This document shows, one piece after another, positions 2 to 12,063 of a stretch of DNA of 12,063 nt (its first letter is position 1; the number at the start of each line of letters is the position of its first letter). Source of the stretch: a bacterium (GTDB taxonomy: Bacteria; Zhuqueibacterota; Zhuqueibacteria; Oceanimicrobiales; Oceanimicrobiaceae); contig JBHHXT010000149.1 in the NCBI GenBank assembly GCA_046757165.1, forward strand, positions 1-12,063. The letters run 5' to 3'. The position numbers and the translations under genes were made by a program. The notes under the pieces are model-generated. The model was not told the origin of the DNA, made no database searches, and saw only the letters and a list, made by a program, of their open reading frames with translations.

Positions 2-892
2 ATGTTAATCAATTTAAGTGCGTTGAATGGCAGCGCAGGTTATGCTTTCGATAGCCTACCCTATCCCGCGGAAATCTATGGCGATTTTCAGCTATCTCCG
101 GACGGCCAGCGCTTAGCTGTGACCATTCTTCAAGGCGATAAGCGGAATATCTGGCTCTACAATCTCACACGGCAATCGCGTTTCAAGCTGACGCTGAAAG
201 GCGGCAATTTTCGCCCGGCCTGGGCGCCAGACGGAAAAGCCATCGCGTTCTACTCTAACCGGACCGGACAGCCGGCTATTTTCGTGAAATCAACTGACCG
301 TAAGGGAGATGCAAAACTTGTTAGGGAGAACGAAAGCGGTGAGTTCTATTTTCCGAATTCCTGGTCGCCCGACGGCAAGGTGTTAACTATGGACGGTGGT
401 GGCGGGAATATTTGGTCGCTGCAGATGGATGGTACAGGAGCCCTGCAACGGCTCATGGAAAGTCCTTTTCAAGAATGGGCAGCAGCGTTCTCACCCGACG
501 GTCATTGGCTCGCCTATACGTCCGATGAGCAGGGACAGTTTGATGTTTACGTTCAACCCTACCCCCCGACCGGAGAAAGCGTGCAAGTTTCGACGGAAGG
601 TGGCGAAGTGCCGGTTTGGTCGCAGAACTCTAACGAATTGTTCTATCGAAATGGCCGCAAGTGGATGGCGGCCTCGTTCACAACCTCGCCAACCCTGTCA
701 TTCGAAGTACCGCACCTACTGTTTGAAGGCAATTACCTGAACATAAATGGTGTGGATTATGATGTGTCGTCTGACGCCCAGCGTTTTCTGCTCCTGAAGC
801 CAATTGCAAAATCATCTTCGCGTACCCACCTTAATGTTGTGACAAACTGGTTTGAGGAATTGAAACGGAAGGTTTCCGGGGGCAAACCATGA
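2..892 (+). CDS. TolB-like (PD40/WD40-like repeat) beta-propeller, 5'-truncated; probably the C-terminal part of a Ser/Thr kinase-TolB propeller type protein
   Basis: Repeated SPDG-type blades: FQLSPDGQRLAV, PAWAPDGKAIAFYSNR, NSWSPDGKVL, AAFSPDGHWLAYTSDEQGQFDVYVQPYP, PVWSQNSNELFY, YDVSSDAQRFL. The C-terminal LNVVTNWFEELKR is typical of kinase-propeller proteins. The frame is open from the window edge and stops at TGA 890-892. The kinase domain itself is not in the window, so that part is inference. Confidence 0.8.
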   Translation: MLINLSALNGSAGYAFDSLPYPAEIYGDFQLSPDGQRLAVTILQGDKRNIWLYNLTRQSRFKLTLKGGNFRPAWAPDGKAIAFYSNRTGQPAIFVKSTDRKGDAKLVRENESGEFYFPNSWSPDGKVLTMDGGGGNIWSLQMDGTGALQRLMESPFQEWAAAFSPDGHWLAYTSDEQGQFDVYVQPYPPTGESVQVSTEGGEVPVWSQNSNELFYRNGRKWMAASFTTSPTLSFEVPHLLFEGNYLNINGVDYDVSSDAQRFLLLKPIAKSSSRTHLNVVTNWFEELKRKVSGGKP

Positions 893-1037
893 CTGGAAAG
901 ACGAACTCACACTATCTTTTTGCCAAAACATATCGCTTCGATAAATATCCCTATATTCAGGAACACCTTTTGAATGACATTCCGTCATAATACTTGCTGA
1001 ATTGCAACTCAATTGTCCACACACAAAACTTATTGCC

Positions 1038-4000
1038 ATGAAAAAGCTGGCCATCTTCACCTTGTTTTCCATTCTGAACGTTTGCGGCACAGGCGTAGCC
1101 GGTAATCTGCAAGACAAGATTTCTTTCCGGCACCTCACCATCGACGACGGCCTGTCGCAAAGCGCGGTCTACGCCCTGTTGCAGGACCGGCAGGGGTTTG
1201 TCTGGATCGGGACCAAGGATGGCCTGAACCGGTATGACGGCTACGACTTTACCATCTACAAAAACGTCCCATCTGACAGCAACAGCCTCTCCAACAATTA
1301 TATCACCGCGCTGTTCGAGGACAGCCGCGGCTATCTCTGGGCCGGCACCCTGGAGGGCGGACTGAACCGCCTCGACCCCACCAGTGGGCATTTCCAGCGC
1401 TATTCAACGTCAGTTTCTGATCCCGGCAGTCTCAGCAGCAACCGCATCACAGCACTTTCCGAGGACAGCAGCGGCGCCTTGTGGATTGGCACCAGCAACG
1501 GGCTCAACCGGTTGACAGCCGATGAAATAGAGCGTCCGGACCCGACGTTTGACAAATTCTTCCACCATCCGGAAAATCCCCGCACGCTCAGCCACAATGT
1601 CATTGCAGCCTTGCTCGTCGATCAGCAGGACAACTTGTGGGTCGGGACGACAAATGGACTGAATCGTTTGACCCGGCATGATACCCTCCAATCTGGTGTA
1701 TTTGTCCACTATTTTTCAGAGGAGGGTGGTGATGAAGGGTTGATGGATTCGCGCATCTATTCTCTGTATCAGGGCCAGGACGGCAGCATTTGGGCAGGTA
1801 CCGCATCCGGTTTGAACCGGGTGCAGCCTGAGACCGGAGCCATCCAACCCTTCCCGCATCATTTTCGTACGTACCGCCGTGGCTGGGGCAACGTTGTGGA
1901 CATCGCCGAGGACGAAAACGGCCACTTGTGGCTCGCCACCCCCGATGAGCTGATGATTTTTGATCCATTGCGACAACACTACCAGTCCGTTCGCAGCCAA
2001 AAGATGAACCCTCGTGCGCTGAACAGCAATCACCTCACCCGTCTTTTTCGAGACCGCTCCGGGGTGTTCTGGATTGGCACCAATGGCTACGGTTTGAACC
2101 TGTACGATCCCAGGGCCGATCGCTTTCTTACCTATCGCCGGCCGCTGGATTTCCCCTCACGCATCAACCGTTTCAGCATTTCTGCATTGCTGGAGGATCG
2201 GCAAGGGAACCTTTGGATCAGCGCCGACGTCCTGTACCGCTGGAATCGCAGCACCGGAGAACTGACCAGTTTTGAAACCGATTCCGAACATCCGGAAGAT
2301 TTTGGCAACACCGGTTCCTGGTCCATGCTGCAGGATCGCCGTGGCTTTATCTGGCTTGCCGGGTTCGAGGGGCTTTACCGCTACAATCCGGAAACCCGCA
2401 ACTACCGCCATTTTACTCACGGCAGGGGTTTGCAGGAAAAGGTGGCTTTTCAGGTTTACCTGGACAGGGATGAGCGCATCTGGGTTGCCACAGAGAACTA
2501 TCTTAGCTGTTATGATTCCGAAGCGGATCGATTTAGCCATTACCGTTACCGTCAAAACCCGGCCACACGTTTCGTGTCCCTGACCGCAGTCTATCAGGAT
2601 GGCAGCGGCATTTTTTGGCTGGCCACAGACGATGGCCTGGCGAGTTTTGATCCCCAAACCGAAACCTTTCGCTATCGCAGAAATGATCCGCGCGATGCCA
2701 ACACGCTCTCGAACAACGTGGTGCTGTCCATCACCCCCGCTCCCACCCGCTCCGGTATTTTGTGGTTGGGAACCGCCGGCGGCGGACTGAACCGTTTCAA
2801 CCGTGAAACGGAAACCTTTCGCGCCATCACCGCAGCCGATGGCCTGCCCAATGATGTGGTCTATGCCGCACTGCCCGATAAGGCCGGCAATCTCTGGTTG
2901 AGCACCAACAAGGGCTTGTCGTGCTTTACCCCGGCCACCACGGCGTTCCGCAACTTTGATGTCAGCGATGGATTGCAAAGCAATGAGTTCAACACCGGCG
3001 CTTATTTCCTGAGTCCGTCAGGTGAGATGTTTTTTGGCGGCATCAAGGGACTCAATCATTTTTATCCCGAAAACATTGTCGACAATCCCCACATTCCAAA
3101 TGTCGTATTCACGGGGTTGCGTCTCTTCAACCAGGTGATTTCGCCGCAAACCCATCCGCAAATCCTGGACACGCTGATCACGTATGAAAAGCAAGTGAAT
3201 CTTTCCCACCGGGATAATGTGATCGCCTTTGAATTCTCCGCGTTGGATTTCTCGGCGCCATCACGAAACCAATTCGCATATCGCATGGTGGGATTTGATG
3301 AGCGCTGGATTCCGTCGGGCACAGGCCGTCTGGCGACCTACACCCACTTGCCGGCCGGTGACTATCTCTTTCAGGTAAAGGGGAGCAATAATGACGGGGT
3401 TTGGAATGAACAGGGCGCTACGCTCGCCATCCATATCAGTGCACCGCCCTGGAAAACCTGGTGGGCATATTCCCTTTACCTCCTGGCGGTCGTCACCCTG
3501 CTCTACGGCCTCCGCCGCTATGAGATGAACCGCCTGCAGTTGAAAAACCGCCTGCAGATGGAACGGGTGGACGGGGAGAAACTGCGCGAGCTGGATCAGC
3601 TCAAGACCCGTTTTTTTGCCAACATTTCCCATGAGTTCCGTACCCCGCTGACGTTGATCGTCGGGCCGTTGCAGCAGTTGATGGACAAAGTGCCGGATGA
3701 GGAGTCGCAGCGCATGCTCGGCATGATGCAGCGCAATACCCGGCGTTTGTTGCAGCTCATCAACCAGTTGCTCGATCTCTCGAAACTCGACGCCGGAAAA
3801 ATGGAATTGTACCTGCGCCAGGGCGATCTCGTCTCTTTCCTGCGCGGGGCTCTGAGATCCTACGACGCGCTTGCGGAGACAAAGAAGATCGACGTTCGCT
3901 TCAGCACAGAACGCGAGTCTTTCATCATGCTGTTCGACCACGACAAAATGGAAAATATTTTCCACAACCTGCTCGCCAACGCCTTCAAGTTCACACCCGA

Positions 4001-5138
4001 CGGCGGCGAGGTCAGCCTCTCCCTCGGTTTTTCCCAAAGCGCTGGCAAGCCTGCCTCCGTCGTGGTCACGGTCGCCGACAACGGCACCGGCATCCCGGCT
4101 CAACGGATGGCTCGAATATTCGACCGGTTTTTTCAGGCGGATGAGAACGGCGGCGAAAAGGGCGGCAGCGGTATCGGACTGGCGCTGGTGAAAGAGCTGG
4201 TGGCGCTGCAGCGCGGCGAAATCTCGGTGCAGAGCCAGGTCGGCGAGGGCACGACATTTACCGTGACCCTGCCGGTGGAAAATGCAGAGATTGTCATGTC
4301 GGAGGCCCGTGCGAAGGAAGCACCCGCCAAATCAGACCGGAAAACGCCGGCGCAACTCTCTGCCGGCAGGGAAAATGGCGAGGAGAACCGGGGCATCGTG
4401 CTGGTGATCGAAGACAACCGCGATATGCGCGCCTTCATCCGAACCGTCCTGCGCGTCGACTACGAGGTGCTCGAGGCGCCGGACGGCAGGGCAGGTATCG
4501 AACAGGCGGCGCAAGCGACCCCGGATCTCATCATCAGCGACCTGATGATGCCGAAGATGGACGGCTATGAATTGTGCCGGGAGCTCAAAAATGACCAGAA
4601 AACCAGCCACATTCCCATCATCCTCCTCACGGCCCGCGCTGCCGCGGAGGACAAGATCACTGGCTTGCAAGCCGGCGTGGATGACTATCTCATCAAACCG
4701 TTCCAGCCAGAGGAGCTGCTGGCGCGGGTGCACAACCTCATCGCAGTGCGCAAAAATCTAATCGCCACCTTGGGCAAAAAAGCGCTGCTGTCTCCCTCGG
4801 AATTGGCGGTAACCCCGGTGGACCAGGCTTTTCTCGAAAAGGTGCGCGAGGTCATCGAACGCGAGATGGGCGATGAAACCTTCGGCGTGGAAACCCTGTG
4901 CGCGGAAATCGCCCTGAGCGAGCGCCAGTTTCGCCGCAAGCTCAAAGCCCTCACCGGGCAGACGCCCAACCAGGTCATCCGCACCATGCGCCTGCAGCGC
5001 GCCCGGCAGATGCTGGAACAGAACGCCGCCACCATTGCCGAGATTGCCTTCCTGGTGGGTTTCGGCAGCCCGGCGTATTTTACCAAAATGTTTCGGGAGG
5101 AGTTCGGGAGGTTGCCATCGGAGGTGGGGGATGGGTAA
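1038..5138 (+). CDS. Hybrid two-component system sensor histidine kinase/response regulator, AraC family (HTCS)
   Basis: The likely start is ATG 1038 (MKKLAIFTLFSIL, signal-peptide-like), although the ORF track begins at TTG 1002. Many Reg_prop repeats (GLSQSAVYALLQDRQGFVWIGTKDGLNRYDG; SLSNNYITALFEDSRGYLWAGT). Y_Y_Y domain (FAYRMVGFDERW...YTHLPAGDYLFQVKGSN). TM helix WWAYSLYLLAVVTLLYGL. H-box FFANISHEFRTPLTLI (His codon 3630). N/G1/F/G2 boxes NLLANAFKF, DNGTGI, IFDRFFQ, GSGIGLAL. Receiver VLVIEDN...LIISDLMMPKMDG...LLTA...KPF. AraC HTH SERQFRRKLKALTG...IAEIAFLVGFGSPAYFTKMFREEFG. Confidence 0.96.
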   Translation: MKKLAIFTLFSILNVCGTGVAGNLQDKISFRHLTIDDGLSQSAVYALLQDRQGFVWIGTKDGLNRYDGYDFTIYKNVPSDSNSLSNNYITALFEDSRGYLWAGTLEGGLNRLDPTSGHFQRYSTSVSDPGSLSSNRITALSEDSSGALWIGTSNGLNRLTADEIERPDPTFDKFFHHPENPRTLSHNVIAALLVDQQDNLWVGTTNGLNRLTRHDTLQSGVFVHYFSEEGGDEGLMDSRIYSLYQGQDGSIWAGTASGLNRVQPETGAIQPFPHHFRTYRRGWGNVVDIAEDENGHLWLATPDELMIFDPLRQHYQSVRSQKMNPRALNSNHLTRLFRDRSGVFWIGTNGYGLNLYDPRADRFLTYRRPLDFPSRINRFSISALLEDRQGNLWISADVLYRWNRSTGELTSFETDSEHPEDFGNTGSWSMLQDRRGFIWLAGFEGLYRYNPETRNYRHFTHGRGLQEKVAFQVYLDRDERIWVATENYLSCYDSEADRFSHYRYRQNPATRFVSLTAVYQDGSGIFWLATDDGLASFDPQTETFRYRRNDPRDANTLSNNVVLSITPAPTRSGILWLGTAGGGLNRFNRETETFRAITAADGLPNDVVYAALPDKAGNLWLSTNKGLSCFTPATTAFRNFDVSDGLQSNEFNTGAYFLSPSGEMFFGGIKGLNHFYPENIVDNPHIPNVVFTGLRLFNQVISPQTHPQILDTLITYEKQVNLSHRDNVIAFEFSALDFSAPSRNQFAYRMVGFDERWIPSGTGRLATYTHLPAGDYLFQVKGSNNDGVWNEQGATLAIHISAPPWKTWWAYSLYLLAVVTLLYGLRRYEMNRLQLKNRLQMERVDGEKLRELDQLKTRFFANISHEFRTPLTLIVGPLQQLMDKVPDEESQRMLGMMQRNTRRLLQLINQLLDLSKLDAGKMELYLRQGDLVSFLRGALRSYDALAETKKIDVRFSTERESFIMLFDHDKMENIFHNLLANAFKFTPDGGEVSLSLGFSQSAGKPASVVVTVADNGTGIPAQRMARIFDRFFQADENGGEKGGSGIGLALVKELVALQRGEISVQSQVGEGTTFTVTLPVENAEIVMSEARAKEAPAKSDRKTPAQLSAGRENGEENRGIVLVIEDNRDMRAFIRTVLRVDYEVLEAPDGRAGIEQAAQATPDLIISDLMMPKMDGYELCRELKNDQKTSHIPIILLTARAAAEDKITGLQAGVDDYLIKPFQPEELLARVHNLIAVRKNLIATLGKKALLSPSELAVTPVDQAFLEKVREVIEREMGDETFGVETLCAEIALSERQFRRKLKALTGQTPNQVIRTMRLQRARQMLEQNAATIAEIAFLVGFGSPAYFTKMFREEFGRLPSEVGDG

Positions 5139-5160
5139 ATAATCGTTCATAAATAGCGAG

Positions 5161-5248
5161 CGTAAAAGTTCGTAGGGCATTCGTCTTTAGTTTTTTTTAC
5201 GTCCTTAGTTTTGGCTTGATTTTTCTCAGCTAAATTTGTACTTATGCT
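5161..5248 (+). promoter_or_regulatory. AT-rich putative promoter/operator region of the downstream operon, with an imperfect 13-bp direct repeat
   Basis: CGTCTTTAGTTTT (5182-5194) and CGTCCTTAGTTTT (5200-5212) match at 12/13 with an 18-bp period. A -35-like TTGATT lies at 5216-5221 and a -10-like TATGCT at 5243-5248, but the 21-bp spacing is non-canonical, so the promoter assignment is weak. Confidence 0.3.
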
Positions 5249-5292
5249 TTGATACCTCCAAGAAAATTCCGTCATTAGAATTGATGATCAGA

Positions 5293-7014
5293 ATGGACTA
5301 CCGCTCGAAACTTTCGACAACCCCTCGAAGGGCCGAGTTGATGTCCCGGGTACGGCAAACTGCAACGCCTCCAGAATTGAAGGTAAGGAAGGTTTTACAC
5401 GAACACGGGTATCGATTTCGAGTAAAAGCAAAGGGCTTGCCGGGCACGCCTGACATCGTCAATCGCTCTGCAAAATGGGTCGTTTTTATTCATGGCTGTT
5501 TTTGGCATGCACATGAAGGGTGTTATCGGTGGAAAATCCCGAAGAACAATCGAGAATTCTGGGTAGAAAAATTCAACGCGAATCGGGAAAGGGATAAAAG
5601 GAAAACAAGAGAACTCGAACAATTGGGCTTCTCGGTACTGGTTGTATGGCAATGTGAACTCGAACGCGAAAGACAAGTCGAGAAAAAACTGTTGCGCTTC
5701 ATGAAGAAAGTCGAGTCGAAAAACGAAGGCTGGATCAACGGCAAGGTTTCTGCAAACGATATTGAATTCGCTTTGCCTCCGGGCCCCAGAGAATCATACC
5801 ACTTTTCATCATCGGGAAAGCATGTATCACGTGTGGTGGAGTTTCCGGGTGGACCCAAGACGGTTTCGAAGTTGTCGAACGACTGCCATCGCACTTCTTA
5901 CGATGATCCCGGATCTGATTTCGATTGGCTGTACTTGAGGTTGAAACACCGGTCCCCGGGCGAGAATTCAACGGAACCTATTCGATGCGTCGATCTCTTC
6001 TCGGGTTGTGGCGGACTTTCGTTAGGGGCGAAAGAAGCGTGCATGGCCGCTGATTTGGACTTTCAGCCGATCCTCGCACTGGACAACGACGCGGCAGCCC
6101 TGGCCGTTTATGTCAGAAATTTTTCTCCAATCCGCGCCCACAATTGTGACATCGAACATATCGTGAATGGCAAAAATGGAGGACGTATTACCGCTGCAGA
6201 GCGCGAGCTCCTAAATGAAATAAAAACCGTCGATTTATTGCTCGCGGGTCCCCCCTGTCAAGGACACTCCGATCTGAACAATCATACTCGGCGGAAAGAC
6301 AAACGAAATACGTTGTACGAAAGAGTCGGACGGTTTGCCGAGATCATGGAACCCGAGAGTATTTTAATCGAGAACGTCCCGACCATCATCCACTCCCATG
6401 ACCGTGTGCTTTTCGAAACCATAGAACTTCTGCAAAGACGTGGCTACCAGGTGGACAGCGGTATTGTCGATCTATCGGAGGTCGGCGTGCCCCAGAAACG
6501 CAAGCGTCATGTCCTGGTGGCCTCTTTGGACAATTATGTAAAGATTGAAGAAGTCGTCGAGAAATATCGCGTGTCCCTAAGAACGGTTCGGTGGGCTATT
6601 GAGGATTTGGAGCAGGAAAAATCGAATGGTATTTTTGCGGCACCTTCCTGCCACACGACGGAAAATCTGAAACGCATCGATTATCTATTCGAAAACGAGC
6701 TTTATGATTTGCCCGACGCTATGCGCCCAGCCTGCCATCGCAATGGGCATTCCTACAAATCCATGTACGGCCGGATTCACTACGATGAGCCTGCACAGAC
6801 GATTACAAGCGGCTATGGTTGCCCGGGCCAAGGGCGATTCATCCATCCAACCCAGAGACGTGCGCTCACGCCCCACGAAGCTGCGCGTTTGCAATTCTTT
6901 CCCGATTTTTTCGATTTTTCAAATGTTGAAAGGCGAACAGCTCTGGCCAACATGATCGGAAATGCCGTGCCCATGAAGCTTTCTTATGTTTTCACTTTGG
7001 AGCTATTAGGATGA
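5293..7014 (+). CDS. vsr-dcm: Very-short-patch-repair endonuclease (Vsr) fused to a DNA (cytosine-5)-methyltransferase
   Basis: N-terminal Vsr (about 5293-5710): MSRVRQTATPPELKVRKVL, LPGTPDIV, FIHGCFWHAH, FWVEKFNANRERD, LGFSVLVVWQCEL. C-terminal C5-MTase (about 5980-7014): motif I VDLFSGCGGLSLG, motif IV GPPCQGHS (catalytic Cys codon 6256), motif VI IENV (6370), motif VIII GVPQKRKR, motif IX RALTPHEAARLQFFPD, motif X IGNAVP. There is no stop between the two domains. The start was placed at ATG 5293 (MD..., typical of Vsr); ATG 5284 and TTG 5236 are alternatives. Confidence 0.93.
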   Translation: MDYRSKLSTTPRRAELMSRVRQTATPPELKVRKVLHEHGYRFRVKAKGLPGTPDIVNRSAKWVVFIHGCFWHAHEGCYRWKIPKNNREFWVEKFNANRERDKRKTRELEQLGFSVLVVWQCELERERQVEKKLLRFMKKVESKNEGWINGKVSANDIEFALPPGPRESYHFSSSGKHVSRVVEFPGGPKTVSKLSNDCHRTSYDDPGSDFDWLYLRLKHRSPGENSTEPIRCVDLFSGCGGLSLGAKEACMAADLDFQPILALDNDAAALAVYVRNFSPIRAHNCDIEHIVNGKNGGRITAAERELLNEIKTVDLLLAGPPCQGHSDLNNHTRRKDKRNTLYERVGRFAEIMEPESILIENVPTIIHSHDRVLFETIELLQRRGYQVDSGIVDLSEVGVPQKRKRHVLVASLDNYVKIEEVVEKYRVSLRTVRWAIEDLEQEKSNGIFAAPSCHTTENLKRIDYLFENELYDLPDAMRPACHRNGHSYKSMYGRIHYDEPAQTITSGYGCPGQGRFIHPTQRRALTPHEAARLQFFPDFFDFSNVERRTALANMIGNAVPMKLSYVFTLELLG

Positions 7015-9239
7015 ATCGACCAACCTCCAATAGTTCCGCCGTTGTCGATAATCAATTCCGACCAGGAACCATTCCATTCAGCGTCGATTCGGCTCTTCTG
7101 CGGGAGTTGGGAGAGCGGCTGGTCGGAAAGCCACACATTGCACTCGCCGAGCTGGTGAAGAACAGTTACGATGCCGACGCACGAAAAGTCATCATTCGTG
7201 TCCGGCCGGATGCGATCGAAATCCACGATAATGGTCACGGTATGAATTTCGATGAATTCGAGCATTTCTGGATGCGCATCGGCACTCCTCACAAGCAAGC
7301 CAAGCGCTATTCTCGCAATCTCGGCCGGCCGATGACGGGCTCGAAAGGCGTCGGTAGGCTTGCCGTCCAATTCTTAGCCGATAAAATCGAATTGCGCACC
7401 GTTTCCGAATATGACCCGGATATAGAGTTGATTGCCCGAGTCGACTGGAATGAAGCCGTACAGGCGGGTGAATTGACCAGGGCGGAAGCAAAATATGAAC
7501 AAATAGTAGGCGAAACGACTTTCCCTGATGCAAGCCCCCATGGCACGATTCTTTATTTATCCGGTTTGAAGCAAAACTGGTCAACTGATAACCTCATCGA
7601 TTTGGCAAGAGAGATCTGGTGGCTGCAGCCTCCTTTCAAGAATAGCACTTCGGATTCCTCAACGTCGTTTGTCGTAGAACTGGATTGTCAGGAAGAAGCT
7701 GCTGTACGCAATTTTGAAAAGCAGATGCGAGCATACCTCGATCTTTGGTACGCCCGAATTGTCGGTAGGCTGGTCAAAACGTCCGATGGTTCCACCGACT
7801 CCCATATTGTCCGCCTTTCTTTGCAGTTCGTGGATGAGTCCCCTATTACAATCGAGTATCCGGCGCCGAAATGTCAATTACACCAGGTTGATTTCGAGAT
7901 TAGAATCTTTCACTTGAAGCACCGGCAGAAGCACGGCATCAGGGTAGATGAAGCCAGAGAGTATCTGAATCAATATGGAGGAGTCCATGTCTACGATGCT
8001 GGCTTCCATTTGCCTTATTACGGCCCGGACACCGATTGGCTTGGGATCGAGCAGGACCATGCTCACCGTCTGTCGAGATCGAAGCTTTTGCCCGACAAGC
8101 TTCAAGTTCCCAAAGGGATGCAGTATCTCCCTACCCAGTCGCGAATTCTTGGAGTAGTCCACGTTGATACGCCAGGTGAACAGAAAAGTACATCGGCAAT
8201 GCGTGATCACGAAAGCGACCACTTAAGAATAGCGGTTACAAGGGACAGGCTCGTTAACAGCACTGCATTTCAGCAATTGCACGATATCGTTCGTTGGGCA
8301 ATAGATTTCTATGCGATGCAAGAAGCCGCTCGGGCCCACGAACGGGCGGAGCAAAAGAAGGAAGTCGAGCCCCTGACAGCGAAGTTCGAACGTGTTGAAG
8401 AAGTTTTGGAATACTATGCCAACAATATTCCACAGCCTGTTTATCAAGAGATCCGCAATCAAGTACAGGATGCTATCAAAGCTAGTGAAACCGAGGCAGA
8501 AGAGCTCGTACGACAGGCGGGATTGCTCGGCACGCTGGCCACGGCCGGTATCTCTGCTCTAGCTTTCGAGCACGAATTCAAGAAGCAGTTCACGATTTTG
8601 CAAAACCTGGTAAGCCGAATCGAAGCAATCGAAGTCCGGGAACCGGCGGCCAAAGATGCCATCAGCGAGATTACTCTGCAATTGAGCGACTGGATAGAAA
8701 AAGCAAGAGCAACTCGGACATTGTTTTCACCCTTTATGAACGAACAAGATCGGCAGCAACGAGCACGTTTCAAAGCCAAAGCCCTGATCGATCAAATTCG
8801 GAAACAGGTCGAGGTCTTGCTTCGCGGAATTCCCATTTCGACGGAGGGCATCGCGCAGGACGTACGCCTACCGGAAGGAACGAATGCGGAATGGAGCGCG
8901 CTTTTTCAGAATATTTTCATCAATGCCGTCAATGCCCTGCTCGATTCCAATCAGAGGCGTATGGCGGTCTCCTCGCGAATTCGTGGAAGAGCTCATGCGA
9001 TCATCGTTCAAGATACCGGTTGCGGCGTCAATCTGTCGAAGGCAGATGAGTTGTTCAAGCCATTCGTCCGGCGGCTCGAGATTTCGCCGGAACGCAGGCA
9101 ACTCGGTTATGGCGGCAGCGGGCTCGGTCTCACAATCGTTCGTATGATTGCTGAAAATCTGCACTGCAAAGTCGCATTCGTCGAACCGGACAAGACGTTC
9201 AGTACGGCTTTTCAACTTTCCTGGAGTGAAAAGAAATGA
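7011..9239 (+). CDS. MORC/MutL-type GHKL ATPase fused to a C-terminal soluble histidine kinase
   Basis: N-terminal GHKL: FSVDSALLRELGERLV, ALAELVKNSYDADA (7149-7175), IHDNGHGM (7227), WMRIGTPHK, GSKGVGRLAVQFLA (7338), HGTILYLSGL. Coiled-coil-like middle region. C-terminal kinase: H-box-like SALAFEHEFKKQ (His521, codon 8571), N-box LFQNIFINAVNAL, G1 VQDTGCGV, F-box LFKPF, G2 GGSGLGLTIVR. No TM segment or signal peptide is seen. ATGA overlap with the MTase stop, and GGAG at 6999-7002. Confidence 0.9.
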   Translation: MNRPTSNSSAVVDNQFRPGTIPFSVDSALLRELGERLVGKPHIALAELVKNSYDADARKVIIRVRPDAIEIHDNGHGMNFDEFEHFWMRIGTPHKQAKRYSRNLGRPMTGSKGVGRLAVQFLADKIELRTVSEYDPDIELIARVDWNEAVQAGELTRAEAKYEQIVGETTFPDASPHGTILYLSGLKQNWSTDNLIDLAREIWWLQPPFKNSTSDSSTSFVVELDCQEEAAVRNFEKQMRAYLDLWYARIVGRLVKTSDGSTDSHIVRLSLQFVDESPITIEYPAPKCQLHQVDFEIRIFHLKHRQKHGIRVDEAREYLNQYGGVHVYDAGFHLPYYGPDTDWLGIEQDHAHRLSRSKLLPDKLQVPKGMQYLPTQSRILGVVHVDTPGEQKSTSAMRDHESDHLRIAVTRDRLVNSTAFQQLHDIVRWAIDFYAMQEAARAHERAEQKKEVEPLTAKFERVEEVLEYYANNIPQPVYQEIRNQVQDAIKASETEAEELVRQAGLLGTLATAGISALAFEHEFKKQFTILQNLVSRIEAIEVREPAAKDAISEITLQLSDWIEKARATRTLFSPFMNEQDRQQRARFKAKALIDQIRKQVEVLLRGIPISTEGIAQDVRLPEGTNAEWSALFQNIFINAVNALLDSNQRRMAVSSRIRGRAHAIIVQDTGCGVNLSKADELFKPFVRRLEISPERRQLGYGGSGLGLTIVRMIAENLHCKVAFVEPDKTFSTAFQLSWSEKK

Positions 9240-10456
9240 GCAAAAAAAGAATTCTTGTCTATGACGACAATTCAGTTGTCGCGAAAGGATGGGCGGATAA
9301 ACTCGATAGAGCGCTCACGCCTTTGCGGGATTCTTTTGAAGTCACACACATATCCGTCAAAGCATTCGAAAGTTGTATTGCTGAACTTGAAAGACGCCGG
9401 AAACTCGCCAGAAAACAAGGCGAATACACCCGACAAGCGATCGAATTCGACAAGTCAGATATCCTCGTTCTCGACTACGATTTGCTGAATCCTGAAGCAG
9501 CTAACGAAGACGTCGAATATTCCATATCTGGAGAGGAGGTTGCCTATCTTGCTCGCTGTTATTCCCACTGCAGATTGATAGCCGGGCTGAATCGATTTGG
9601 CCAAAACACCTTCGACCTCACCCTAAAAGGACATCCGGAGTCCTATGCGGATCTGAACATCGGCGAAGATCACGTCGACAACAAGGGGCTTTGGTTCGAC
9701 GCGCCGTGGCACGAATTTCGACCCTGGTATTGGCCGGTCTTGCCACATACACTGGATGCATTCGAGAAGCGCGTCGACGAATTGAAAGCCAACGGCAATC
9801 TGGACAAACCGATACTCGGCTTCTTGGAGTTTCCCGAAGAAATCGTGCAAATCCTGCCGCGCTCCAGCCTGGAATTTATTTCCGTTCCAGATAGAAGGCC
9901 AGAAGAAACTACCTTTCATGAGTTCGTGCGGGCAACCGGGAACGGCTTGAAGCGAAAAGACCAACCTTGCGACGATGACTCGGTCGCCCGTATCGCCGCA
10001 GCGCGCATCGCGAAATGGCTGGAACGGCTGGTTTTGCCGGGACAGGACATTCTCGTCGACGCGCCGCACTTGCTGCTGCGTTATCCGAGTCTGCTGAAAG
10101 GTGACAGGAACAAACCCGAAACGTGGGACGCGATCGTTTCGATAACAGAACTCGATAAATTGAAACCGAAAATCGAAGATGAGAAAATCGAAGAATTCCG
10201 GTTCAAGAAGGATAATTGGCTTTCACGTCCGGCCTGGTTCTGGCATCAGGTGAGCAATTCGGACCAAATTGACGAAGTAAGGAATCCTTGGGCGACGGAG
10301 CGGCCCGATTTGGTATTCTGCGAGGACATATCGAAGTTCATGCAAAAGAGCGAAACGCAAGAATTTGTTGCTGAATTGCCATCACCTTTCGTGCGACGAT
10401 TTGTGAAAATTGAAAGGGCAGTCAGTTACAAACCTGGCGTTAGGTTTTCACTCTGA
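9236..10456 (+). CDS. Atypical response-regulator receiver domain protein with a large uncharacterised C-terminal region
   Basis: RILVYDDNS matches receiver beta1 plus the acidic pair. DILVLDYDL matches beta3 with a candidate phospho-acceptor Asp80 (codon 9473), and SGEEVAYLAR matches the G-x-E helix 3 pattern. ATGA overlap with the kinase gene, and GGAG at 9223-9226. About 280 remaining residues are not recognisable. Confidence 0.75.
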   Translation: MSKKRILVYDDNSVVAKGWADKLDRALTPLRDSFEVTHISVKAFESCIAELERRRKLARKQGEYTRQAIEFDKSDILVLDYDLLNPEAANEDVEYSISGEEVAYLARCYSHCRLIAGLNRFGQNTFDLTLKGHPESYADLNIGEDHVDNKGLWFDAPWHEFRPWYWPVLPHTLDAFEKRVDELKANGNLDKPILGFLEFPEEIVQILPRSSLEFISVPDRRPEETTFHEFVRATGNGLKRKDQPCDDDSVARIAAARIAKWLERLVLPGQDILVDAPHLLLRYPSLLKGDRNKPETWDAIVSITELDKLKPKIEDEKIEEFRFKKDNWLSRPAWFWHQVSNSDQIDEVRNPWATERPDLVFCEDISKFMQKSETQEFVAELPSPFVRRFVKIERAVSYKPGVRFSL

Positions 10457-10473
10457 GGCAATCGGGGGATGGG

Positions 10474-11337
10474 ATGCAAAGTGAAGTGACAGTCTTTCGG
10501 AAGTTGTTTTTGTGGCTTTGGGATTCCTGCAAGAAACCCTGGGAATTAAACGGAACTGCGCAGAAAATTTATGAACTCACTCCTACAAGAAATGCTCTGA
10601 TTGGTAAAGCCGAAGAACTCGAGGGATTATTGCCGCGTGAAGGTAAGGTTCAGTCGGATATGAGAAACCGTTTTCTCTATCTAGAACCACCTGAAGAAGG
10701 GCTGACTTTTGTTCCTGTATTGTCTATGAAATGTGACTTCGGGCGTAATGTTCCAGAGGTTCGCATTAAGATGGCTTTGTTTTTTCTCGATCAATGGGGA
10801 GCTTTACAAACGGTAGGTTTTCGCTATGAATCTCCAGAGGGCGCCGGAAGCACTCGTACGCATCATTACTATCACGTCCAACTCATAACCGGTTTTCACA
10901 AAAATGGAACATTTACACCCAATCAAGCGGGTTACCAAAACGAAATGAAACAAATTTTTTGGTCTACCGATATTCTCCCCACAAAACACCCCGCATTCCC
11001 TCTGGACGCAAATGATCCTGTCAAACTCCTCCTCTGTTTGCTGGTCAGCCTTTACGGATTGTCTTATATTGGGAGTTTGCGTAGTGAGAGCGGGTTAGGG
11101 GACGACTTGGAGGACTACTTGAAGGGCATGAACTTGGAAAAATTCGATCCAATCATGTGGTATTGGAAAGTCTCACCAGAAGATTCTTCAAGAAAGGGCT
11201 ACACAATTTACGATACCCAGAAAACTCCAGAAGAATTCAGAAAGATCATGCAAAGACAGCATCCAGGCCACAACATTGCGGGAATTACAAGAGAGGAATA
11301 CGAAAAAGAGCCTGAGAGAAAGCGCAAGACGTGCTGA
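10474..11337 (+). CDS. Hypothetical protein, last gene of the operon; candidate effector
   Basis: A 287-aa ORF starting 17 nt after the previous stop, preceded by G-rich RBS-like GGGGGATGGG. Contains GFRYESPEG (10816-10842), HHYYHVQ (10861-10881) and PAFPLDANDPVKLLLCLLVSLYG. No family is recognised with confidence. Confidence 0.75.
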   Translation: MQSEVTVFRKLFLWLWDSCKKPWELNGTAQKIYELTPTRNALIGKAEELEGLLPREGKVQSDMRNRFLYLEPPEEGLTFVPVLSMKCDFGRNVPEVRIKMALFFLDQWGALQTVGFRYESPEGAGSTRTHHYYHVQLITGFHKNGTFTPNQAGYQNEMKQIFWSTDILPTKHPAFPLDANDPVKLLLCLLVSLYGLSYIGSLRSESGLGDDLEDYLKGMNLEKFDPIMWYWKVSPEDSSRKGYTIYDTQKTPEEFRKIMQRQHPGHNIAGITREEYEKEPERKRKTC

Positions 11338-11461: not shown

Positions 11462-12063
11462 TTAACTAAGCCATTCTTTGAACGCTGTTTCTTTGTTCGT
11501 CTTGAAGCTTGAATATGCGAGAGCCACAGCTTGCCAAGTGTTTAGATTTCTATCACCACGCAGCGTCTTCACTCTGTTGAGGAGCTCAATGGCTTCATCA
11601 TATCTTTTTACTCCAATAAGACTGTACGCCAAAAAAGCCAGAACGTTAGGGTACTTGTGAATAGGTTGGCGGAACATGTCCCTCAAGATACTTGAAACAC
11701 TCGAGACTGCTTTTGTAGTGTCCTATTTTTAGAGGCGCTTTGCTCAAATGGATTGCTGCATCAATTTCATCACTCGAAACCAGCTTTTGGAGCATGTGAA
11801 GAATCTCTTTGATCGACCCTCTTGGGTCTACTTGAGCAGCCTCTTGCCTTAAGTCTAACCGTTCAACTTTTTTTCTTATTAGACTCAAGAAACTTGTATC
11901 TTCTCTAAAGTCGGACGGGCTATACAACCCTTCACGCTTAAACCACAATGTTATGAAGAAAAGAATGGCAATTGTGGATGGAAAAAGAATGACGAACCAG
12001 ACAAAATAGACTGTATATTGAGAATCATTCTCCAACATGAACTCAATGATATCGTAGAAATGG
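11462..12063 (-). pseudogene. Membrane-anchored TPR-like protein, apparently split by a frameshift (pseudogene or sequencing error), 5' end outside the window
   Basis: Frame A (open from the window edge through 12038 to a stop at 11646) gives the TM segment VYFVWFVILFPSTIAILFFITLWF, then LYSPSDFREDTSFL, then a TPR-like DAAIHLSKAPLKIGHYKSSLECFKYL. Overlapping frame B (11686-11462) gives a second TPR-like YPNVLAFLAYSLIGVKRYDEAIELLNRVK. A single-base shift in about 11646-11722 would join the two frames. Confidence 0.55.

Follow-up and report, generated by a model that had tools for sequence, protein, structure and literature searches.

A four-gene cassette with a DNA methylase and a putative phosphorelay

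The 12,063-nt stretch of DNA analysed here, hereafter the window, is one complete contig (JBHHXT010000149.1) from a member of the Oceanimicrobiaceae (Zhuqueibacterota; assembly GCA_046757165.1), in whose 6.09-Mb genome every gene of the cassette described below occurs once. This cassette consists of four tightly packed open reading frames (ORFs) on the forward strand, at 5293-7014, 7011-9239, 9236-10456 and 10474-11337. ATGA overlaps join ORF1 to ORF2 (7011-7014) and ORF2 to ORF3 (9236-9239), and a gap of 17 nt (10457-10473) separates ORF3 from ORF4. An initial annotation of this DNA had described the four co-oriented genes, both overlaps and the gap, and had proposed a phosphorelay-controlled defence system; the arrangement was confirmed in full, and the residues singled out in ORF1 (Cys322), ORF2 (Glu47, Asn51 and His521) and ORF3 (Asp80) lie where they had been placed.

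ORF1 (573 aa counted from the ATG at 5293; the frame itself begins with TTG 5236 and includes another ATG at 5284) is a fusion of an N-terminal Vsr very-short-patch nuclease domain (5293-5742; Pfam Vsr E 1.9e-21; TIGR00632 124.7 bits, cut-off 97.85) with a C5 cytosine methyltransferase (C5 MTase; PF00145 E 2e-48; TIGR00675 above cut-off), whose catalytic Cys322 is at position 6256. ORF2 (742 aa) joins a paraMORC-like GHKL+S5 ATPase (HATPase_c_3 E 5.7e-21) to a dimerization and histidine phosphotransfer (DHp) helix and a kinase catalytic and ATP-binding (CA) domain (HATPase_c E 9.8e-18). These domain matches bear out the Vsr-C5 MTase fusion and the double-GHKL protein of the initial annotation. 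Across 65 aligned ORF2 sequences the ATPase residues Glu47 (7149), Asn51 (7161), Asp73, Gly75, Gly77 and Arg411, the first two residues of the DHp motif His521-Glu-Phe (codon 8571-8573) and the CA residues Asn634, Asn638 and Asp668 are all invariant (65/65). We term the ATPase paraMORC-like because the MORC-defining S5 motif GhXhhpXXRhl is not matched exactly, its Arg position being Phe332 (65/65) and the next residue being Arg in 38 sequences and His in 27. ORF3 (406 aa) is an atypical receiver with an output domain of ~225 aa, and ORF4 (287 aa) belongs to an unnamed family.

The kinase-receiver-ORF4 trio is the conserved unit

Our main locus set comprises 73 genome loci found with the ORF3 alignment, from more than 10 bacterial phyla plus three archaeal records. 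The conserved unit among them is a three-gene core of kinase, receiver and ORF4, whose co-occurrence goes far beyond chance: in all 70 loci that could be evaluated, the MORC-like kinase immediately precedes the receiver, and in 67 of 68 ORF4 immediately follows the receiver, another ORF lying between these two in L034. A kinase-anchored search hit four of 401 Pseudomonadota genomes, one of them already in the set, and all three new ones carry the trio with a C5 MTase and Vsr; an ORF4-anchored search gave four metagenome loci, three with kinase and receiver and the fourth on too short a contig. As for conservation of the four-gene order, which the initial annotation had set out as a check, the trio travels together, but the exact order with a Vsr-MTase fusion is found in just 8 of the 73 loci and the methylase is exchangeable.

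The cassette is real, widespread and mobile, with a patchy, horizontally spread distribution across phyla. Two plasmids bear the trio (fragmented in one of them), and the ORF4 family occurs in a single genome out of 167 from the host's phylum, namely the host itself; in that sample PF19192 (0/167) and PF10053 (0/151) gave no match, and controls were also silent. Phage records returned partial ATPase matches only, and the viral collection returned no ORF4 locus and one receiver locus. Four loci (L031, L042, L068 and L075) contain frameshift-fragmented cassette genes, through either decay or sequencing error.

No cognate restriction enzyme recurs around the loci, in agreement with what the initial annotation had noted for the operon. 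Clustering of all ORFs of at least 80 aa around the loci found no recurrent nuclease, and nuclease domains among the nearest neighbours are scattered over one or two loci each. A restriction-modification (RM) or defence-type domain was the nearest outside neighbour in 21 of 69 loci (Pfam, 125 neighbours), by a manual count with no background control. In seven Poribacteria loci (L006, L027, L028, L030, L032, L035 and L051) the cassette sits among type I RM genes, mostly on the opposite strand, and three of the seven have no nearby C5 methylase.

The methylase is an exchanged partner

Of the 51 fully flanked loci, 44 have a C5 MTase within 3.5 kb and 27 have Vsr, both found upstream or downstream and on either strand. 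In the 42 loci where all four genes are present, pairwise identities correlate better among trio members (Spearman 0.71-0.82) than between trio and MTase (0.41-0.53), and with one Poribacteria locus retained the values are 0.69-0.83 and 0.30-0.41, respectively. All of them are inflated by shared ancestry, but their contrast shows that the methylase is an exchanged partner of the trio. Its pairing with Vsr, which has an established role, or with an HhH-GPD DNA glycosylase suggests that it really modifies host DNA. The glycosylase adjoins the cassette in five loci (L021, L022, L041, L045 and L060), none showing Vsr, and may replace Vsr there for T:G repair.

ORF1 also matches DruM2 (4e-104), and ORF2-4 match no Druantia model. 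Druantia type II, which we take to consist of DruM with DruE, DruF and DruG, was rejected as an identity for the locus, the window having no DruE, DruF or DruG genes. Over all contigs of the host genome the palindromes CAGCTG (observed/expected 0.17) and CTAG (0.29) are strongly avoided, with no link to the ORF1 methylase shown.

An atypical receiver with a conserved output domain

ORF3 (9236-10456) has 949 homologues and no Pfam, NCBIfam or PADLOC match. In its predicted structure (pLDDT 88.2), residues 1-180 adopt a receiver fold (Z 9.1, root-mean-square deviation (rmsd) 3.0, 113 residues aligned with the DrrB receiver), so that the earlier description as receiver-like stands, with the qualification that the canonical Thr/Ser and Lys are missing. 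Asp10, Asp11 and Asp80 (codon 9473-9475) are present in 185 of 185 sequences. In a check for the Thr that canonically follows strand 4 and the Lys that follows strand 5, the ORF3 sequences showed Asn119 (179/185) and Gly143 (142/185), and Lys or Arg at position 131 (160/185) might substitute for the absent Lys. The two residues of the His521 to Asp80 phosphorelay put forward in the initial annotation are invariant (65/65 and 185/185), but phosphotransfer to Asp80 is likely rather than certain because the receiver is without two of the five canonical residues.

Near-invariant residues also occur in the output domain: Asp275 (183/185), His278 (184), Glu363 (184), Asp364 (184), Ser366 (183) and Arg388 (183). 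Its matches in the ESM Atlas are to unnamed clusters alone, and the ORF3 fold searches, which covered residues 1-183, barely tested it. An HTH_17 profile comparison (E 0.2) lent no support to an excisionase-like helix-turn-helix (HTH) or a transcription-factor winged HTH (wHTH) in this domain. Profile searches of PDB sequences with the ORF3 and ORF4 alignments returned nothing significant.

ORF4 is an unnamed family and a candidate effector

The ORF4 family (10474-11337 in the window) counts 999 cluster representatives at E<=0.001 and is the most divergent member of the cassette, with a median pairwise identity of 24% against 41% for ORF3. The predicted model (pLDDT 78.6, with low confidence near residues 124-176) has a core of ~220 aa made of a beta-sheet and helices. 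Arg117, His134 and Gln136 are invariant (174/174), His130 (173/174) and Glu119 (169/174) nearly so, and the conserved motif spans about 10822-10881. Such an Arg/Glu/His/His/Gln cluster, kept at 24% identity, looks catalytic. The earlier view of ORF4 as an orphan with a His-rich motif holds insofar as no Pfam, NCBIfam or PADLOC family matches it, but of the three His just His130 and His134 are conserved, His131 being found in 13 of 68. The C-terminal ~60 aa (residues 226-287, 11149-11337) are optional, present in 11 of 67 locus copies; they bear a weak, non-significant likeness to AcrIC9 (Z 5.0) and to the antitoxin ATfaRel2 (Z 4.2).

Against the PDB the ORF4 model gave nothing clear, the strongest hit (Z 5.0, rmsd 2.5 over 56 residues) involving just the C-terminal part and Foldseek staying at E>0.2, and against BFVD there was no clear match either; these negatives do not demonstrate a new fold. 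None of 107 family members matches an HNH family at E<=0.1, and an E2/ubiquitin-conjugating-like fold was rejected, Atg10 at Z 3.8 being too weak and no Cys being conserved. Among candidates of 577-2000 aa no ORF4 fused into a larger protein was found, which is weak evidence. Complex prediction of ORF3 with ORF4 residues 1-225 scored 0.00 (mark 0.32), which is no verdict and is not counted either way.

Some observations connect ORF4 with TumE (PF20126), which inhibits translation (PMC10584680), and with DUF2290 (PF10053), which belongs to the Helicase+DUF2290 anti-phage system. In the ESM Atlas, ORF4 features lie at 0.90 to a cluster with 15% DUF2290, and a TumE-domain cluster is structurally similar to its model (TM 0.53 by target over 111 residues, 0.29 by query). 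By eye, these families show a strand-loop-strand motif similar to that of ORF4, in which two His precede a Pro and a hydrophobic helix, although ORF4 is twice the size of TumE. None of 107 ORF4 members has a Pfam match to either family, and the best ranks in an ORF4 profile search of ~12,250 sequences were 94 (DUF2290) and 251 (TumE). The link is only a lead, because direct profile comparison is not significant (hhalign E 0.18-0.48, with shallow profiles of 7 and 8 sequences).

Relation to Ambrosia and other kinase-receiver systems

The closest design that we found is that of Ambrosia (AbrR-AbrA-AbrB-AbrC-AbrD), a validated anti-phage system of Pseudomonas aeruginosa in which defence needs every gene and the receiver Asp60 (bioRxiv 10.1101/2025.09.30.679545). 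The view in the initial annotation that the class has little experimental characterisation was thus overtaken, since Ambrosia, built to the same design, blocks phages and depends on its receiver Asp. Both systems run in the order methylase, HSP90-like ATPase/histidine kinase, receiver and last gene, and both do without a classical cognate restriction enzyme. ORF2 corresponds to AbrB in architecture and invariant residues, the likeness being to the description and not to the AbrB sequence, and ORF3 corresponds to AbrC in receiver fold (Z 9.1) and phospho-Asp (Asp80, 185/185). On several points they differ: AbrC has a wHTH output, for which the HTH_17 profile gave no support in ORF3, AbrA is an N6-adenine methylase whereas ORF1 is a C5 MTase fused to Vsr, AbrD is an HNH nuclease and ORF4 is not, the XRE regulator AbrR has no counterpart gene here, and Ambrosia is found in Gammaproteobacteria whereas the trio spans many phyla. 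Searching via plasmids did not find Ambrosia-like sequences.

A second relative are the HEF_HK (PF19191)/Response_reg_2 (PF19192) pairs beside C5 methylases, predicted in 2021 (PMC8011034) on the basis of PMC2292703. Shared are a soluble kinase with HATPase_c_3, a His-Glu-Phe helix and HATPase_c, a receiver gene directly downstream, and C5 MTase plus Vsr neighbours (here a C5 MTase in 44/51 loci). However, PF19191 on ORF2 stays under its cut-off of 24.1 (12.6 bits, E 0.21), PF19192 matches none of 39 ORF3 family members, and hhalign to three PF19192 proteins gives E 0.36. Response_reg_2 proteins have ~560-600 aa with conserved Thr and Lys (PMC8011034), whereas the ORF3 family has ~400 aa and neither residue, and here a fixed third gene follows the receiver. 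The prokaryotic MORC and paraMORC proteins of RM operons (PMC2292703) share with ORF2 the GHKL+S5 arrangement, intact ATP-binding motifs, the invariant basic residue and the C5 MTase and Vsr neighbours; they differ in that the ORF2 C-terminus is a kinase and not a nuclease, no helicase partner recurs and the S5 motif is inexact.

The cassette works like Ambrosia and the HEF_HK/Response_reg_2 systems but is a member of neither, and it fully matches none of the named systems compared here. What is new in it are ORF4, the output domain of ORF3 and the atypical receiver. Literature searches gave no paper recognisable as describing the kinase-receiver-ORF4 trio, most subscription papers being outside their coverage.

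More distant MORC-kinase cassettes were also seen. On two plasmids (L076:6575-11978 and L077:6030-13038), a methylase is followed by a MORC-kinase, a receiver-like protein of ~360 aa and a protein of ~230 aa with an ORF4-like two-His motif; the kinase is far more distant, the methylase is a different one, non-C5 by annotation, and a GIY-YIG nuclease comes after the L077 cassette. The ORF4 profile scores E 0.002 (probability 13%) against the L076 fourth protein and E 0.04 against that of L077. Both rank high among ~12,250 sequences (7 and 22), yet with E 2.3 and 12. With the DUF2290 profile these two proteins exceed the 99th decoy percentile, whereas ORF4 members do not (1% above). In L078:6607-11776 and L079:6616-11750 an adenine methylase, a MORC-kinase and a short receiver precede a metallo-beta-lactamase (MBL)-fold hydrolase. 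In a midpoint-rooted tree, the L076 and L077 kinases fall on long branches with the trio kinases and apart from those of the MBL-type cassettes (100/97).

A proposed mechanism and its alternatives

We favour, with a probability of roughly 0.55, a reading in which this is a phosphorelay-gated, methylation-linked cassette against phages or plasmids, Ambrosia-like in logic and with ORF4 as the effector. From the co-inheritance of the genes and the invariant ATPase, phospho-His, phospho-Asp and ORF4 residues documented above, we infer sensing, phosphotransfer and effector activity. The methylase would modify host DNA; ORF2, through its MutL/MORC-like clamp and probably in concert with the methylase, would sense foreign DNA or tampering and activate its own kinase; phosphate would pass from His521 to Asp80; activated ORF3 would switch on ORF4, by binding or by expression; and ORF4 would act as a His-dependent nuclease or toxin in place of the HNH nuclease of Ambrosia. 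Sensing by the clamp, the switching of ORF4 and its activity are the least certain steps. Related cassettes support the effector role of ORF4 by analogy, as their fourth gene encodes an MBL hydrolase or, in Ambrosia, an HNH nuclease. That the methylase marks self, as the initial annotation had it, is doubtful, since the same idea was put to the test in Ambrosia and failed, methylation not protecting the phage. A role as specificity subunit or guarded bait fits the methylase, because it is freely exchanged beside a conserved trio that has no recognised specificity domain.

Several observations weigh against this defence reading. Of the 73 loci, 20 are from Poribacteria and so not independent, and 7 of 51 fully flanked loci have no nearby C5 MTase, while L007 shows no methylase among its labelled or scanned genes. 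The receiver locus of the viral collection (L105) combines the receiver with a kinase fragment, ORF4 not being detectable. In ORF3, Asn119 replaces the canonical Thr/Ser (179/185) and no Lys follows strand 5, and its output domain, with its own near-invariant acidic and His residues, could be the catalyst. In sequence, profile and structure searches, ORF4 was not significantly similar to any nuclease or toxin.

An alternative is that the true effector is the ORF3 output domain, as a nuclease or some other enzyme, with ORF4 serving as cofactor, adaptor or immunity protein. The six near-invariant output residues, the lack of support for a transcription-factor wHTH and the greater divergence of ORF4 speak for it, but we consider it quite unlikely, as the invariant ORF4 cluster would suit a catalytic site and the fourth gene in sister cassettes is a recognisable hydrolase or nuclease.

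Another possibility, a specific form of the defence reading that overlaps with it, is that the trio monitors the neighbouring methylase or RM complex rather than methylation, so that a phage inhibitor would trigger ORF4 as an RNase-type toxin that blocks translation and stops the cell. PrrC reportedly follows a similar logic. The free exchange of methylases beside a trio lacking a recognised specificity domain is consistent with it, as are the seven Poribacteria loci inside type I RM genes, probably a single event, and the structural resemblance of the ORF4 model to the TumE-domain cluster. We nevertheless judge this unlikely: the likeness of ORF4 to TumE is not significant in sequence (hhalign E 0.23-0.35; TM 0.29 by query), and Ambrosia is reported to show no host toxicity during defence. 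Very unlikely, in our assessment, is a function outside defence, with a mobile signalling module regulating a solitary methylase and repair enzymes, or serving a stress or DNA-damage response. In its favour, no restriction enzyme recurs, repair enzymes accompany the cassette (Vsr in 27 of 51 loci, an HhH-GPD glycosylase in five others showing no Vsr), and PMC8011034 proposes a regulatory role for its HEF_HK systems, whose genes are induced in planta. The Ambrosia precedent speaks against it, as do the patchy distribution over phyla, the neighbouring RM genes and the invariant third gene.

Returning to the defence reading, we can speculate further, with low confidence, that ORF4 founds a widespread family of His-dependent nucleases or RNases, remotely akin to TumE/DUF2290, which would also fill the fourth slot of the distant MORC-kinase cassettes with adenine methylases. 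The non-canonical receiver would switch it post-translationally, the MORC clamp would guard an interchangeable methylase, and the phosphorelay, not a restriction enzyme, would decide on attack.

Ambrosia is the precedent for phage defence gated by two-component signalling. The present cassette is a compact four-gene version without the XRE regulator, with invariant residues at each step and an exchangeable methylase that amounts to a natural swap. One of two parts of it, the ORF3 output domain or ORF4, is probably a new catalytic family. The cassette also takes the class far outside Gammaproteobacteria, into many uncultured phyla and into archaea.

Surroundings of the cassette in the window

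The intergenic region upstream of ORF1 (5139-5292, no strand assigned) is the presumed promoter. It contains a 13-nt direct repeat (5182-5212; copies at 5182 and 5200, 18-nt spacing), which may be due to chance; the repeat is not conserved in six relatives with the same gene order, and no operator conserved among these was found. Neither a sigma-70 promoter nor an Rfam family was found in this region. The window offers neither space nor an ORF for an XRE gene 5′ of ORF1, and HTH_3 occurs in just 3 of 90 small ORFs (ATG starts, 55-125 aa) flanking the cassettes of relatives.

GC content at third codon positions (GC3) is 0.45-0.55 in the cassette, against 0.71 in the upstream gene (1002-5138, forward strand), which encodes a hybrid two-component sensor of 1378 aa with beta-propeller repeats, Y_Y_Y, HisKA, HATPase, receiver and AraC HTH domains and is an ordinary neighbour outside the cassette. 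It is preceded by a PD40 beta-propeller protein (2-892, forward strand), which is probably the C-terminal end of a longer product whose gene is truncated at the start of the contig. Convergent with the cassette, two overlapping ORFs of low GC in different frames (11646-12062 and 11462-11686) occupy 11462-12062 on the reverse strand and may together represent a single gene, split by a frameshift, that encodes a membrane-anchored helical-repeat protein.

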